DNA from: a virus
UHGV virus genome: UHGV-0259485
Length of the DNA: 28,703 bases
Reading direction: 5' to 3' (one strand)
The position numbers were made by a program, and so were the translations under genes. The notes beneath the pieces were generated by a model, which ran no database searches, was not told where the DNA came from, and saw nothing but the letters and a program-made list of their open reading frames with translations. Below, in pieces: positions 2,299-8,475 of this stretch; positions within the stretch are counted from its first letter, which is position 1; each line of letters begins with the position of its first letter.

Positions 2299-2550
2299 TT
2301 ATTCAGGATGTGCCGATGTCTGATCGTAAGTACAAAAACCCTCAAGTGAATCTGAGGCTTCCTGTAGAGATAAAGGAACGTCTTATTGAACTGGCTGAGG
2401 CTAATTCTCGTTCATTAAATGCTGAGATGGTCGCGGCACTTGAAGCGTGGACAGAAAAAAATAAACACATTCAAGCACTAGACCTTGCAACTATAGCATC
2501 ACGATTGATAGATCTTGAACACGATGTTGAGACGCTAAAGACCATGTATG
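2267..2550 (+). repeat. Pair of identical 24-bp direct repeats (2267-2290 and 2527-2550) at the 3' ends of the two mnt-like genes
   Basis: TTGAGACGCTAAAGACCATGTATG occurs twice; both encode the C-terminal ETLKTMY tail. Confidence 0.8.
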
Positions 2551-2567
2551 CTAAGGATGAAAAATAA
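2316..2567 (+). CDS. Second Mnt-like RHH protein (paralog), translationally coupled to downstream gene
   Basis: AGGA RBS 7 nt before ATG at 2316; PQVNLRLPVEIKERLIELAEANSRSLNAEMV RHH motif; stop overlaps next ATG (TAATG at 2565-2569). Confidence 0.6.
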   Translation: MSDRKYKNPQVNLRLPVEIKERLIELAEANSRSLNAEMVAALEAWTEKNKHIQALDLATIASRLIDLEHDVETLKTMYAKDEK

Positions 2568-3103
2568 TGCTGCACACAATTCATTTCTTATGCCCCGTTA
2601 ACACTGCCACTGTTGGGCAACTTCAGAACCACTGTCTCACCGCATTATCTCAAGGCGCAACTGAATTAAATATCCATATATCAAGTCAGGGAGGGGAAAC
2701 TGCCGCTGGCTTTACTGCGTATAACTTTCTTAAGTCACTCCCTGTTACCGTTAGAACTCACAACATAAGCAATGTTGAATCCATAGCTAATATCGTTTTC
2801 CTGGCTGGCTCAGAACGTTTCGCAAACCCATTATCAAGATTCCTGTTACATCCTCTATTATGGTGCTTTGCCTCCCCAGCCGCCGACCATGCCAGATTGA
2901 GAGAGTACGGGAAATGCCTCGATAACGATCTTGATCGCTTCGTTGAGACGTTCAATATCGACATCGGAACCCATATTAGGTGGGCATCCCTGATAGCAGA
3001 CTCGACCATTTTGGATGCTAACAAGGCTCTTGAGCATGGCATAATTAATTCCATAAAAACTGCAAGGCTGGTATCCAATCAGGCAAACTGGTGGGTTGTT
3101 TGA
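2567..3103 (+). CDS. ClpP-fold serine peptidase-like protein (178 aa)
   Basis: NIHISSQGGETAAGF aligns with ClpP YINSPGGVITAG; candidate triad Ser (NVESIA), His (LLHPL), Asp (IADST) in ClpP-like order. Assignment by eye, not by search. Confidence 0.5.
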   Translation: MLHTIHFLCPVNTATVGQLQNHCLTALSQGATELNIHISSQGGETAAGFTAYNFLKSLPVTVRTHNISNVESIANIVFLAGSERFANPLSRFLLHPLLWCFASPAADHARLREYGKCLDNDLDRFVETFNIDIGTHIRWASLIADSTILDANKALEHGIINSIKTARLVSNQANWWVV

Positions 3104-3180: not shown

Positions 3181-3366
3181 TTAACAGCCTCCGCGTCCAC
3201 GAGTAATTCTGTCGCGGATTTGCTTCCTGCGGTGGTTTAAGCTGGAGAGCTTGGCTTCTGCTTCTGATATTTGCACATCTAGATCTTTAAGCTCAAGATC
3301 TGAAAGTCGCTGGTCAAGCAGGGTTTGATTCAACTCAATGTTGTTCAGACGTTCTTCTATGGTCAT
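3181..3366 (-). CDS. Small coiled-coil protein with basic C-terminus (61 aa), unknown function
   Basis: ORF with AAGGA RBS; heptad-like leucine pattern, C-terminal RRKQIRDRITRGRGGC. Confidence 0.35.
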   Translation of the reverse strand: MTIEERLNNIELNQTLLDQRLSDLELKDLDVQISEAEAKLSSLNHRRKQIRDRITRGRGGC

Positions 3367-3398: not shown

Positions 3399-3421
3399 AA
3401 AAAAACCCACCTGACGGTGGG
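3399..3421. terminator. Terminator-like hairpin, potentially bidirectional
   Basis: A7-CCCACC-TGAC-GGTGGG followed by TTAATTTTT on plus; U7 follows the stem on the minus strand. Confidence 0.5.
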
Positions 3422-3513
3422 TTAATTTTTGCATTTACCTGGGCCATATTGACTACTTATAAAATGAGATCAATATTTAATCGCCCAATAACGGGTATAT
3501 GTTGAGGTATATC

Positions 3514-3693
3514 ATGGCGAAAAAACCAGGTGAAAACACAGGAAAAAACGGCGGAATATACCAAGAAGTTGGCCCACGCGGCGGTAAGAAAGACAATTTT
3601 GCAACCGTCAAGGACAACGAAAGGCTTCCACCAACAACAAAGCCAGGTCATGGCTGGGTATTGGATAAGCGAACTCCAGACAGCAAAAAGTAA
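3514..3693 (+). CDS. YjzC-like small protein (GIY and PPT motifs)
   Basis: GAGG RBS 5 nt before ATG at 3514; MAKKPGENTGKNGGIYQEVGPRGG...LPPTTKPGHGW. Confidence 0.55.
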   Translation: MAKKPGENTGKNGGIYQEVGPRGGKKDNFATVKDNERLPPTTKPGHGWVLDKRTPDSKK

Positions 3694-3706
3694 TACTCAA
3701 GCCGGG

Positions 3707-4072
3707 TCACTCCGGCTTTTTGATATGTCGCTCGCAGAACTCAACAAGCCTGCTCATTAAGTAGCAGTAAGTCTCGTTGGCTCTTCCTGGTTCAACATCA
3801 ACACCTACCCTTGAGCAGATATCGAATGCCATGTGAGCGCACTCATGGGCAATAGTAGATAGTTTGCCATTGAACACGCCTATCACATGCAAAACACCAT
3901 TCTCGCTACTCATTGTATGAGACGCTCCGTTGGCGTCCGAGTCATGCACGTCAACGCCAAGTTTTTGATGCAGGCGTTGCCATTCTGGAAAGTCTCTACA
4001 AAACACAATTGTACCGCTCTCAAAGAGCGGTACTAGCATCTTTGGTACATTTCCAATGTTAACTTTTTTCAT
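3707..4072 (-). CDS. HExxH-motif protein, putative small zinc metallopeptidase-like (121 aa)
   Basis: STIAHECAHMAFDI contains HExxH; no other family signature recognised. Confidence 0.45.
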   Translation of the reverse strand: MKKVNIGNVPKMLVPLFESGTIVFCRDFPEWQRLHQKLGVDVHDSDANGASHTMSSENGVLHVIGVFNGKLSTIAHECAHMAFDICSRVGVDVEPGRANETYCYLMSRLVEFCERHIKKPE

Positions 4073-4106
4073 GGTATCCTGCGCAAAACTAAGGAGAGTT
4101 AATTAT

Positions 4107-4592
4107 ATGAAAAAATCACTGTTAATTATCCCGCTTCTGCTGGCTGGGTGCGCAAAAGTAAGCGACTATCAGGCAAGTTGCGAGCAACGCTATCCAAAGC
4201 TTAGCGATATGGCTAATTGCCTTGATGCCAGCTTGAAGAACGACTCTCGCATGGCATCAGCACCAACACCTAAGCTGTATGTCCTTGCTGCGAAGATGCT
4301 CGGGCAAGGTGTCGATGAAGGCAAGATAAGTGACACACAGGCAAGACTTGAACTTCAGAATCTTTATGTTCAATTACAAAGCCAAGAACAAGCCCAACAA
4401 ATAGCGCAAAGCCAAGCATTCCAGCAGGCTTTATTGAATTATCAGGCTGTAAACACAATGCAAGCGATCGAGCAAAAAGCGCGCCAGCCTGTTATAACTC
4501 AACCTTACCCAACACGCGTTGACACATATACAAACTGCAATTCAGGATTTGGAAACACCGTCACATGCAACAGTAGCAGCAACATTAGATAA
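4107..4592 (+). CDS. Lipoprotein (start refined to ATG 4107), Gln-rich central region
   Basis: AAGGAG RBS 10 nt upstream; MKKSLLIIPLLLAGC signal peptide with lipobox; candidate surface or superinfection-exclusion lipoprotein. Confidence 0.6.
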   Translation: MKKSLLIIPLLLAGCAKVSDYQASCEQRYPKLSDMANCLDASLKNDSRMASAPTPKLYVLAAKMLGQGVDEGKISDTQARLELQNLYVQLQSQEQAQQIAQSQAFQQALLNYQAVNTMQAIEQKARQPVITQPYPTRVDTYTNCNSGFGNTVTCNSSSNIR

Positions 4593-4763
4593 AGCTATTC
4601 ATATTCATTCATACCGCTTAACGAGGCGACAATACCAGCTCTCGACAAGCGATTGAATTCATCGCTACCAATAGCATCGCGTATTGCAGACCAACAATCC
4701 GATATGGTAAAGAAAATTGTCTTTGATACGCTCAGAGATTTATATAAAAAAGACAGCAACTAA
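4593..4763 (+). pseudogene. Remnant of an mnt-like gene (C-terminal ~35 codons, no start codon)
   Basis: Same frame as the lipoprotein gene, immediately after its TAA; translates ...IASRIADQQSDMVKKIVFDTLRDLYKKDSN, matching the P22 Mnt C-terminus (EQSELVKKMVFDTLKDLYKK). Confidence 0.5.
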
Positions 4764-4780
4764 CCATCCGTGGCTTTCCG

Positions 4781-7012
4781 TTACTTCTGGTTATCATCAC
4801 TGTTCATCCAGTACATGATGCCTAGCCTTGATATGGTTTTCTTATCTGATTCTGGAAGTGAGTTGTAAAACGAGCGCCAAGCAGAAGAGCGTCTTACAGT
4901 TGTATCAACGATGCTTTCTGGTGCTTGTTTTACTGCCAGCCTTGCTGCTTTCTGGAATTCTGGTGAGCTAATTAGCTTTTCTGCAGATTCCATTGATGCA
5001 GCGCCGCCCATCGCCCTGATTTTGCTGGCGACTTTTGCCCCAATTTCTGACCCAGCAACAGCACCTACTGCACTGAACGGTCCTGACACAGTTGAACCAA
5101 CCGCAGTGCCAATGCGTTGGGCATGGTTAGCAACAAATTCATTTGCCGCAGTGACGCGATTAAACCGTTTGACGAACTCGTTTAGTCTTCCTGTGGTTAT
5201 CTCGTAAGATTTTGCGTCTTTGATAGCCTTTGCGACCTTATATACATCGTTCAGACCTGACATAGTCTCTTTTGGTAAATGTCGGGCAAGATTGCGCATC
5301 TGCCCGTTTGCTAACATGTTTTGATACCAGTCAGCAAACCCTGCAGGATTAAAATCAGCGCCACGTTTTCCGTTCGAAAGCATATCCCGAAGACCTGTTC
5401 CCAGTAGCTCGGTTCTTAGCTTCCTGGACGGCGTGTTTTGCATCAATTCACGAAATCCTTTGGCATCGCCTTTCGACATTGCCTGTAGTGCTGTAGTTGC
5501 TTTGCGAGAAACATCACCGTTCAGCGTTCTGCCAGTTAGATTAATCATTTGCTCTTCCATGCTTTTTCGCATCTGAACAAGCCTCTGAGCAACTTCAAAA
5601 TCACGTAATGCATTTGTCTCTGACAGCGCCGCCTTTTGATCATCGGCGAGCGAACCGTAAAGCCTCGATAAAGCAGCGCGATCAGTATCTTTATATGGTC
5701 CAGAATTCCTATGAAGTGCATCACCAACAAGTCGTCGTTGCTTATTGAGATTTGCATAAGTTAATGCGCCGTTCTTGCCTGGATTAACTGCCCGAAAGAC
5801 TCTCTTTTCAATAGGGTCAAGGTTTTTCATCCCGCCAAGATCTTCTGCCACCTGTTTGAGCATTGACCTTGTTGATGGCGCATCAATTTTTGCACCTGCA
5901 GGCATCGCCTTTTCAACATTGCGATAAAGCTGGTCGCTTCGTTTCATCAGCGCAGACATTCTTCCATTGACCGTATCAATAAACTTGTCGCTCATACCAA
6001 GAGCATCTTTTGCACCGGAAACGCGATCAATTATCTCCCCCGCGCCCTGTGCTAGCTGCCTGATTGCTTCATTTTCCTGCACCTGTAGAGCAGAACCCGC
6101 ACGGGACTTGATTGCTTGCTCAACTGCCTTGTATTGCTCGTTCCCGGAAAAGTGTGAAGGGAGTAATGAATCAACATTAAGCCTTTCAGCAGACTCCAGA
6201 ACTTCAGCCTGAGGATTGATATCTAGTTCATCAAGCGATGAAGCGAGATTTGGCCTTTTTTGTGCTGCTACTGTGCGAACGACTTCCTCTGGGTTCCTCG
6301 TCGCAGGCGTCATTGGTACACCTTGTGCTACTCTTGCCTCTGCGGCATGAACCGCAGGATTTGTTGCTGCAGCGGCATCACCGGAGAATGGTGATGTTTC
6401 TGTTGGCGCAGTGGTCGCTCTCTGTGCAGATATTTTATTGCCACTAATTATATTTGATGCACCACGAACACCACGGGTAACGCCATTTATCAGGCCATGC
6501 GTAGCAATGTTAAGTCCGGCATTAATAGCGGCATTTTCGGCAAAATCACCCCGTTGATTCGCCGCGTCAGCGAGAGAACCAATGACCATGTTTCCAGCTA
6601 CACCTGCTCCAGGAACAAGATAACCGCCTATTGACTCTCCAGCTTGCGCGTAGGGGTCTGTCGGTCTGTCTACTGGACGATAAACATCATCCAATACTTT
6701 TGGCCCCCCAAGCCCCTGACTGATTGCATTAATCAGACTTGCGCCACCCTGCAATACGTCAAATGGTATGTTTACCAGACCACGACCAGCCTGTTCTGCA
6801 ATTTGCTCTGCACTTTGACCACCAGTGAGCCAATCGCCAGCTTGTTGCATCAATGATGGTTCTTCCCGTGTTGGTGCATTATTGGCCTGATTAACTGTTT
6901 GTTGCTGAACAGCCTGACCAGCAAAATACTCATCAATGGCGGTGCCAATATCTTCGGTGCTCGTACCATCAGGAAAGGTAAATGTCTTACCGTTTGCAGT
7001 TACTTTCATCAT
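4781..7012 (-). CDS. Ejection (E) protein, gp16-like by synteny (743 aa)
   Basis: Last large gene of the virion block in the P22 gp16 position; overlaps upstream gene by ATGA. Confidence 0.55.
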
Positions 7013-8475
7013 TCCACCGTAAATTGAATGCCTGATTTTGAGGTATATGATCCGGATTGACTCTGCTGCTGTTGGGTATTTGTCGGTTGTTGGCTATTGC
7101 TCTGTTGTTGACTATTTGCAGCACTTGAAACCACCAAAGCATCATAAACGCGACCAGACTGACCACGTAATGAGTTATATTGGCCCTGCATTTTTCGCAT
7201 TTTTGTTTCAGTAGCAGCCTTGGAATCACCGGGCTGAGGGAGGTACATTTTGGAATACTCCTGCATCTCTGGCAGAGTAATTGCTGCACCTGTTTCTGGG
7301 CGCAAAATTGCATACAAGGCGTCTCTCGCATTTACCATATATTGCTGCTCCGCTGGTGATAGGCTTAAATTTGCAATAGTTCCATCACCAAGAGAGCGAT
7401 TTATTAATGCAACTCGCTTAGGGTCAATGCTTTTACTAAGCTGATTCATTGAGTCCATTGAATCTTTTAATCGCAAAGCAAATCCCGCCGCCTTCTTGGA
7501 ACCCTCATTAGCCTTATCTATGATGCTTTGCGCTTGTGGCAAGCTAATTGGTTTAATGCCATCACCAGATATAGGTTGGTTTAGTTTTCCGGCTTCCTCG
7601 CTGCCATCGGTGTAATACTTAGTTACCGAGCCATCAGGATTGGTTTCAACCTTAAGTAATTTCTTAGCATTGGGATTAATTCCCGCCGCTGCCGCAAATG
7701 CCGCTGCACCATCTGGATCTACCTTTAACATTTGCGCGTACTGATTGTAATTCTGCATTGCGGCTGTTGGTGCATATGCTGACGTTAACGCATTTGCTCG
7801 GCTAATATCCTGCCCTCTCGCCTGAAGTGCTTCACCAGCCTGATTGCTGCGGATTGTCTCTGCCAGTCTGCCTCGGTCAATCTCACGACCAGCCATCTTG
7901 TCCTGAACATTGAAGTAATCAATCGGACCAAGAGCAGCCATCCCAAGGTGATCAACAAACTCACCAAATCCTGAAGGATTCTGCTGATACATCTGAGCAA
8001 CGTTATTAGGGTCAACACCGACGCGAGTCAGTTCCTTGGCGTTGTTTTGCAGCCATGATTGCATTGCTTCTGGAGACGAGGCCGCAAGGCGTGCGCCAGC
8101 CGCTAAGGTGCCGATAGAATTGCGCTGGTCTTCATCAATGAATCCCATGCCTTTGCGAACAGATTCAATCTGGTCTGGATATTGAGTAGCCAACTGACGC
8201 AAAGCACCGCGATCACCAGACGCATAAGCATTAGCGTACGCCTGCTGAAATTCTTTCTGCCGCTGAGCCTGCTTTTCCTGCTGAAACACCCCTGCAATAC
8301 CTGAAAGGCCTTGCAAAGCAGTCAGCCCAACATTGTTAGCGCCTGAACGCTCAATATCATTGTTCTGCCTGATAAGCTGAAGCGTATTGCCGATGTCATT
8401 TACGCTCGGAGCGTTTGAGTTGACACCACCGATACCAGCCAACAATCCGCCATTTGTTCCTTGCCAAGTAGCCAT
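7009..8475 (-). CDS. Ejection protein, gp20-like by synteny (488 aa)
   Basis: Position and size match P22 gp20 (471 aa); Ala/Gln-rich. Confidence 0.55.

Follow-up and report, generated by a model that had tools for sequence, protein, structure and literature searches.

An exchangeable-cassette locus in the P22-type ant moron of virus genome UHGV-0259485: a predicted lipoprotein beside the independently distributed zincin-like gene hkcC

Virus genome UHGV-0259485, whose 28,703-nucleotide (nt) stretch is the window of this analysis, carries two small divergent genes, hkcC and a lipoprotein gene, with only the 34 nt at 4073-4106 between their start codons. Do such closely spaced genes form a pair that is regulated and acts together, or are they separate modules that lie side by side? 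An earlier note, made from the sequence alone, had described an HExxH protein and a Gln-rich lipoprotein at a P22 sieA-type moron hotspot and had favoured overlapping regulation. The layout it gave, divergent with starts 34 nt apart, was confirmed by the open reading frames (ORFs) and by the HECAH codons of hkcC. We find that the two genes are distributed independently of each other, and we consider it rather probable that the region is a mosaic of independent modules in a P22-type ant moron and not a gene pair. The elements on which the argument turns are as follows (aa, amino acids).

3707..4072, minus strand: hkcC, a 121-aa ORF, zincin-like and predicted soluble, PHROG 1365, on the strand shared with the late/virion genes.
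4042..4072, plus strand: PsieA equivalent, inside hkcC codons 1-10; the 'P sieA' of P22-pbi (3643-3673 in locus L001) maps here.
4073..4106, no strand: spacer, constant through 4096, with the cassette Shine-Dalgarno TAAGGAG at 4090-4096 (+) and the hkcC AGGA at 4077-4080 (-).
4107..4592, plus strand: lipoprotein gene, 161 aa, PHROG 6067, antisense to the late operon, in the sieA/hkcB slot.

The 121-aa ORF is the annotated HkcC of HK620 and is intact, with 99% aa identity and unannotated, in P22-pbi. The lipoprotein ORF as listed begins at 4056 (+); we place its true start at ATG 4107 because TAAGGAG lies upstream of this codon and every homologue begins with Met-Lys-Lys. The region belongs to what has been named the 'ant moron' of P22-like phages, the rapid flux of which was already described by Villafane et al. 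2008 (PMC2629481), and hkcC and its neighbour orf59a are listed there as genes of unknown function. Both genes of the divergent arrangement were previously catalogued as hypothetical, both PHROGs (6067 and 1365) are labelled 'unknown function', and a literature search on hkcC, orf59a, P22 HExxH proteins and P22-like lipoprotein exclusion returned only 'unknown function' listings.

The point at which the cassette is exchanged could be located exactly. Window positions 3400-4100 are 97% identical in DNA sequence to P22, HK620, ST160, SE1 and some 60 other P22-like phages. In a four-way alignment the window follows P22 and HK620 through ...AAAACTAAGGAG and from there on follows phage Gally, in which the same lipoprotein stands behind a different upstream region. 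The mosaic junction falls at 4096/4097, directly after TAAGGAG, and the lipoprotein gene starts within about 4 nt of the P22 sieA and HK620 hkcB starts, with which it shares its upstream sequence. The PsieA stretch at 4042-4072 shows a single mismatch in this alignment.

We then compared what lies across the spacer from hkcC in 80 IMG/VR loci, chosen by HkcC identity of 99-100%. In 79 of them the distance between TAAGGAG and the hkcC start codon is the same, 17 nt; locus L077 yielded no cassette ORF. Column conservation, which is at least 95% over the PsieA stretch, stays at that level through TAAGGAG save for two weaker spacer columns and collapses right after it. Behind this one constant Shine-Dalgarno sequence stand at least 12 unrelated cassettes, so that the slot is a genuine hotspot of the sieA type that the earlier note had proposed. 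Their frequencies among the 80 loci were:

18 loci: the 161-aa lipoprotein of the window, commonest in the sample.
12 loci: SieA.
12 loci: a 129-aa protein with a signal peptide.
8 loci: HkcB type.
8 loci: a 75-aa protein with two transmembrane (TM) segments.
6 loci: a second 109-aa TM and coiled-coil protein.
5 loci: a 106-aa TM protein.
4 loci: a 62-aa TM protein.
2 loci: a 68-aa protein.
2 loci: a 149-aa protein.
1 locus: a 99-aa protein.
1 locus: a 140-aa protein.

Eleven of the 12 cassettes contain a hydrophobic segment (hydrophobicity KD(15) of at least 1.77), as membrane or exported proteins do, and a Pfam search found no family for any of the 12.

The lipoprotein, in turn, occurs without hkcC. 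In Proteus phage Brookers it stands alone in this sense and starts 18 nt after a same-strand gene of the Arc/Mnt repressor family. Escherichia coli phage Gally also carries it without hkcC; the Gally gene in the hkcC position was considered as a possible HkcC and rejected, being unrelated to it. A Yersinia ruckeri prophage has the lipoprotein as the sole gene in the slot and no HkcC, a Morganella prophage has it in the same slot without hkcC, and in Serratia marcescens it is intact, again without hkcC, within a decayed prophage. In six genera it always lies in the slot between gene 16 and the tailspike gene, convergent with gene 16 and antisense to the late genes. Among 5426 complete E. coli genomes, 131 hold hkcC and 186 the lipoprotein gene, both annotated as hypothetical. 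Since hkcC is found with 12 cassettes and the lipoprotein is found without hkcC, we conclude that the two are not a functional or co-regulated pair.

The Serratia loci (L102 and L103) deserve a separate remark. The lipoprotein gene lies there with a Bro-N protein gene and a tailspike gene beside the host genes queH and tonB, an arrangement seen in many contigs; gene 16 is truncated or absent and unrelated DNA lies beyond. This looks like a domesticated prophage remnant.

What kind of protein, then, does the window's cassette encode? Its sequence begins MKKSLLIIPLLLAGC... and ends at 4592, and its export signal is:

4107..4151, plus strand: signal peptide and lipobox L12-A13-G14-C15; the residue at +2 after the Cys is Ala.

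A Met-Lys-Lys n-region is followed by SLLIIPLLL and then by L-A-G-C15, as lipoprotein signals have it, and hydrophobicity KD(15) reaches 2.11 at residue 5. Among 23 homologues from several genera G14, C15 and A16, and likewise C25, C38 and C154, do not vary, and the conservation of L12 is at least 90%. Since the +2 residue is Ala, the E. coli rule predicts Lol-dependent sorting to the outer membrane. Gln makes up 13.6% of the mature protein and 14 of the 45 residues in the stretch 86-130, and the structural model suggests a disulphide-capable helical domain, a Gln-rich helix of about 50 residues and a C-terminal Cys-loop hairpin. Close homologues number 90 for the lipoprotein and 32 for HkcC. 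Against divergent homologues nonsynonymous divergence (dN) is 0.29-0.44 with synonymous divergence (dS) saturated, and against phage Gally the lipoprotein gives dN/dS of 0.047; judged from their sequences, both ORFs are real genes rather than chance ORFs. Searches of the lipoprotein against Pfam, NCBIfam (E≤1), PADLOC and the sequence families of the PDB gave no match. As regards the attributes of a moron, variable presence and antisense orientation are both seen, and for the promoter the one ground is homology to the PsieA annotation in P22.

Among the envelope-acting lipoproteins of phages and plasmids are T5 Llp, phi80/N15 Cor, TP-J34 Ltp, lambda Bor and TraT. The window protein resembles these in being small, encoded on a mobile element and predicted to reside in the envelope; Llp and Cor are about half as large, and its long Gln-rich helix and Cys-loop tail set the window protein apart. 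Ltp and Bor are cited in PMC10883804 and PMC7067206. The closest comparison by position is with SieA, experimentally a prophage-expressed inner-membrane protein that blocks DNA ejection, multi-pass and with a cytoplasmic FxRYPxEAxxFNK motif (PMC10883804). The lipoprotein shares with P22 SieA and HK620 HkcB the start, the strand, the upstream sequence through the Shine-Dalgarno and the convergence with gene 16, and all are envelope proteins. It has, however, no sequence relationship to SieA and lacks the FxRYPxEAxxFNK motif, and it is predicted to be an outer-membrane lipoprotein whereas SieA sits in the inner membrane. By analogy, the lipoprotein is probably a prophage-expressed envelope factor that excludes other phages; receptor masking, as put forward in the earlier note, is at most a plausible idea.

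The second question concerns HkcC, for which the following sites matter.

3833..3847, minus strand: HECAH motif, H76 E77 C78 A79 H80, codons CAT GAG TGC GCT CAC, in the modelled helix 71-88.
3773..3778, minus strand: N99-E100; E100, the first residue of the modelled helix 100-116, follows H80 by 20 residues and is the putative third ligand of the zinc.

A full hidden Markov model (HMM) search of 1.84 billion representatives yielded 546 clusters of relatives at E≤1e-3 and 151 at 1e-10, nearly all of 105-140 aa. We aligned 94 diverse relatives, all assigned to PHROG 1365 and 23-44% identical to the window protein for all but one (73%). The only invariant columns are H76, E77, H80 and E100, so the conservation of the HExxH residues, on which the earlier note had staked its proposal beforehand, holds throughout; in another alignment (A2) N99, E100 and T101 are invariant. 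The AlphaFold (AF2) model is confident (pLDDT 89, pTM 0.83) and predicts four strands and a helix, then the HExxH helix 71-88, then a helix from E100. As modelled, the HExxH motif would thus lie on an alpha-helix and the Glu on the next helix at +20 from H80, a spacing equal to that of H146-E166 in thermolysin. HkcC has no hydrophobic segment (maximum KD(15) 1.31). The family profile matched myroilysin at E 0.003; a Foldseek search of the model against the PDB gave no match, and matches to solved zincins were weak overall. Pfam returned no relevant match at E≤1 (only a spurious lantibiotic one), and NCBIfam and PADLOC returned nothing.

The gluzincin metallopeptidases (thermolysin-type HExxH...E; M3, M4, M9) are the nearest kind that we can name. 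The SprT, WLM and ImmA/IrrE (M78) families, which the earlier note had put forward for profile searches, were rejected by profile: one of the 94 relatives was weakly SprT-like at 1e-4 and none matched M78 or WLM. HkcC differs from SprT/Wss1-like proteins and from ImmA/IrrE (M78, including CapP) in giving no profile match. The third zinc ligand is typically His in SprT/Wss1 and in minigluzincins, whereas HkcC has Glu at +20, and in contrast to ImmA/IrrE it has no adjacent gene for an ImmR-type repressor substrate. The suggestion of a small metallopeptidase therefore stands as regards the invariant HExxH-x19-E site read from the sequences and fails as regards the families proposed. Very probably, to judge from sequences and model, HkcC is a catalytically competent mini-zincin with a thermolysin-like HExxH-x19-E site, in a family that has no curated model. 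Some relatives are longer: P0184, P0269 and P0270 (272-285 aa; locus L091) have the HkcC-like domain at the C-terminus behind a region of about 165 aa without a family match, and L091 is a phage-like contig in which no called gene has a Pfam match. Pfam searches of the longer or fused relatives (157-285 aa) were uninformative, and scans with P0022 and P0032 as query found nothing.

When would hkcC be expressed? It shares its strand with the virion genes and has AGGA 5-8 nt before its ATG. Scanned for consensus promoters, neither the spacer nor the hkcC side yielded a sigma-70 site. A perfect TATAAT at 4102-4107 (-) was considered as a conserved hkcC promoter and rejected, being cassette-specific, absent in P22 and HK620 and without a well-spaced −35 element. 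Conservation upstream of hkcC ends at 24 nt in the 80 loci. Distant HkcC relatives adjoin terminase, portal or tail genes in the same orientation, and late transcripts cross the ant moron to the tailspike gene (PMC2629481). Because of the late strand, the lack of a conserved promoter of its own, the late read-through and the co-oriented relatives, a late lytic role is likelier than one in lysogenic conversion. The gene is probably transcribed only by read-through of the late operon, and its product probably is an active metallopeptidase made in lytic growth, as far as sequence features can tell. The earlier picture of two divergent promoters in the short spacer was not borne out: the annotated PsieA of P22 maps inside the first hkcC codons, and the hkcC upstream sequence is unconserved beyond 24 nt. 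Nor was that of a divergent pair with overlapping regulation, given the 12 cassettes found with hkcC and the lipoprotein found without it in other hosts. Taken as a whole, the interpretation in the earlier note holds for the hotspot and for the conserved metal site, and the exclusion role it suggested is plausible; it does not hold for the pair with overlapping regulation or for the protein families.

A recurrent neighbour of hkcC was found on its other side.

3514..3693, plus strand: orf59a, a 59-aa basic protein, convergent with hkcC and annotated in P22.

The resemblance of Orf59a to YjzC is weak (E 0.0013, below the curated cut-off), and none of its relatives has a solved structure. In 12 of 12 Enterobacterales prophages that are not P22-like, an orf59a homologue (76-81% identity) is convergent behind an HkcC homologue (57-65%); these prophages have siphovirus-type tail genes (tail tube, tape measure) and come from Klebsiella, Rosenbergiella, Proteus, Xenorhabdus and several uncultivated contigs. 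Among the P22-like loci, orf59a lies at a fixed distance in 70 of 80, and in the other 10 a 74-aa membrane protein with two TM segments takes its place. From these counts (12/12 and 70/80) the recurrent Enterobacterales neighbour of hkcC is orf59a and not the lipoprotein. Since the 74-aa protein takes the orf59a position in these loci, there seems to be a second small slot for cassettes, convergent with hkcC. This protein begins MISAILSVLLASLF... and lies at about 6380-6604 (-); its loci are L011, L013, L051, L055, L057, L059, L068, L073, L074 and L080. Homologues of Orf59a with 66-80% identity are also found in Psychrobacter, Pseudomonas, Vibrio and alphaproteobacteria, there unaccompanied by HkcC. 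Its conservation at this level is unusual and spans Proteus, Xenorhabdus, Psychrobacter, Pseudomonas, Vibrio, Ruegeria, Phaeovulum and Pseudooceanicola (loci L104-L115); among the occurrences without hkcC outside the Enterobacterales, one is beside phage head-tail genes and one beside an integrase gene. The linkage of hkcC and orf59a may be functional or may reflect the hitch-hiking of one mosaic block.

How do these results bear on other explanations of the locus? That hkcC and the lipoprotein gene are a co-regulated divergent moron pair acting together, a receptor-masking lipoprotein with a metallopeptidase or antirestriction factor and with overlapping promoters in the spacer, draws on their adjacency, their divergence across 34 nt and the 18 of 80 hkcC loci that have this lipoprotein. 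The same hkcC is, however, paired with 11 other cassettes, the lipoprotein does without it in Gally, Brookers, Yersinia, Morganella and Serratia, and the E. coli counts differ (186 genomes against 131); moreover, the mosaic junction falls between the two genes and hkcC upstream conservation ends at 24 nt. As judged from sequence comparisons, the gene distribution has already largely refuted this explanation, and we regard it as very improbable. A role of the lipoprotein in host fitness or virulence, in the manner of lambda Bor or plasmid TraT (serum resistance, adhesion, envelope robustness), is unlikely. A predicted outer-membrane lipoprotein on the lysogenic strand would suit such a role, as would its intact state in the decayed Serratia prophage beside host genes and its wide occurrence in E. 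coli from animals and humans. Against it, the slot and the promoter and Shine-Dalgarno are common with sieA, a proven exclusion gene, the link to the ejection-protein gene 16 is tight and exclusive in six genera, and the lipoprotein has no Pfam or NCBIfam match at E≤1, where models for Bor/TraT-like lipoproteins would be included.

If HkcC had no catalytic activity and were a zinc-binding protein, a scaffold or a degenerate zincin serving as a binding module, this would account for the want of a good solved-structure match and of a Pfam peptidase family, and C25, C78, C86 and C103, which the enterobacterial clade conserves, could make up a metal site of structural function. These extra cysteines are not conserved family-wide, however, and the general base E77 is invariant along with the three putative ligands in 94 sequences, which argues against a purely structural site since such a site would not need it; we hold this alternative to be quite improbable. 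A true functional pair of hkcC and orf59a, with Orf59a expressed in the lysogen and HkcC as a late protease, one acting on the other or both on a common target, has somewhat better prospects and is still unlikely; removal of a prophage-state factor at induction, or a toxin/inhibitor-like couple, would be examples. It would fit the convergent arrangement in all 12 of the other prophages and in 70 of the 80 P22-like loci, the bidirectional terminator common to both genes and, in P22, the position of orf59a downstream of the maintenance repressor gene mnt. Yet 10 of the 80 loci keep hkcC with the 74-aa membrane protein in place of orf59a, distant HkcC relatives lack orf59a, orf59a lacks hkcC in Psychrobacter, Pseudomonas, Vibrio and alphaproteobacteria, and hitch-hiking of a mosaic block could explain the linkage.

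The explanation that we prefer, a dock with a cassette lipoprotein and an independent late zincin HkcC, appears to us somewhat better than an even bet. The sequences themselves establish the anatomy of the locus, its conservation, the exchange of cassettes and the independence of the two genes; for expression timing, localisation, catalysis and exclusion we infer the following. An expression dock at 4042-4096, consisting of PsieA inside the first hkcC codons and the Shine-Dalgarno TAAGGAG, would drive whichever cassette has recombined behind TAAGGAG, and the cassette, being antisense to the late operon, would therefore be active in the lysogen. The lipoprotein would be exported and, once lipidated at C15, pass to the outer membrane, as its signal sequence predicts. 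There its role is likely to be that of SieA by analogy, shielding the lysogen from incoming phages at the envelope, and it might either disturb the ejection conduit (gp7/gp20/gp16) or mask a component of the outer membrane. Separately, hkcC would be served by its own AGGA site and late read-through and would give a cytoplasmic zincin of about 120 aa. Several points weigh against this account. The consensus promoter scan did not flag 4042-4072, so that PsieA rests on the P22-pbi annotation, and a terminator scan of 4593-4780, downstream of the lipoprotein gene, detected none. The lipoprotein model is mediocre (pLDDT 66) with generic helical bundles as its only structural matches, and the protein shows no homology to characterised exclusion proteins and no PADLOC match. 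The co-orientation of hkcC with late genes is also compatible with a private promoter in some contexts, and the expression timing of both genes is read from sequence.

A bolder version of the preferred explanation seems to us distinctly doubtful. The dock would be integron-like and fixed and its at least 12 envelope proteins would each have a distinct superinfection-exclusion specificity; the lipoprotein would be anchored in the outer membrane as a new factor blocking the podovirus ejection conduit; and HkcC would represent a late miniature zincin family that cleaves a lysogen-state or host protein, possibly Orf59a, and so licenses lytic growth. What is new in our results is modest: cassette exchange is pinned to the Shine-Dalgarno, with one dock for at least 12 envelope cassettes, PHROG 1365 has a gluzincin-type signature, and hkcC is linked to orf59a across phage morphotypes. 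The dock with its at least 11 further envelope proteins offers a ready panel of candidate exclusion factors, to each of which the single-copy assays built for SieA are applicable. HkcC has been 'unknown' since 2001, and its recognition as a mini-zincin gives a concrete biochemical hypothesis for a gene in P22 itself. Both points are incremental and cheap to test by experiment, and current concepts are unchanged.

The surroundings of the locus are those of an ant moron: orf59a, Arc/Mnt-like genes, a ClpP-like gene and an Ant homologue lie upstream. The remaining features are:

823-1746: Ant homologue, in the immI-like region.
2017-2567: Arc/Mnt-like genes, in the immI-like region.
4781-7012: gene-16-type DNA transfer protein gene, flanking the region.
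7009-8475: gp20 Inj_translocase gene, beyond the gene-16-type gene.
3699..3718, no strand: hairpin, bidirectional terminator between orf59a and hkcC, covering the hkcC stop codon (terminator scan).
4011..4033, minus strand: hairpin in hkcC codons 14-21, with a perfect 10-bp (base pair) stem and a 3-nt loop, -17 kcal/mol.

At the position of the first hairpin HK620 is annotated with a 'bidirectional terminator tORF59A' and P22 with 't mnt'. The second is terminator-like on the late strand and lies just upstream of the PsieA equivalent of the opposite strand. It has one mismatch in P22 and HK620 and is lost in divergent hkcC homologues, and is therefore no family-wide RNA element; it could serve as an operator or attenuate transcription that is not antiterminated. 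The two gene starts, at 4064-4072 and 4107-4115, both read ATGAAAAAA (Met-Lys-Lys) and form a 9-nt perfect inverted repeat flanking the spacer, which is probably incidental because it is absent from other cassettes.

The ClpP-like serine protease gene at 2567-3103 (+) encodes 178 aa (PF00574, E 2e-11) and begins at the stop codon of an Arc/Mnt-like repressor gene at 2310-2567 (+), so that both apparently belong to one operon of the lysogenic strand. P22 lacks any counterpart at this place, but IMG/VR locus L051 has the same gene. On the late strand, an ORF at 3181-3366 (-) encodes a predicted coiled-coil protein of 61 aa, MTIEERLNNIELNQ..., which is nearly unchanged in IMG/VR loci with differing neighbours and has only a weak XhlA-like match (E 0.02). 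Finally, the 188 nt that separate the stop codons of the lipoprotein gene and gene 16 hold, as seen with window positions 4575-4687 and 4679-4800, a remnant that matches, at 94.7% identity, the 3' end of another gene-16 allele, the 'DNA transfer protein' of phages Dewey, Huey, Louie and CurroJimenez, as well as a piece 92.6% identical to Sf101. These remnants are scars of an earlier cassette or gene-16 exchange.

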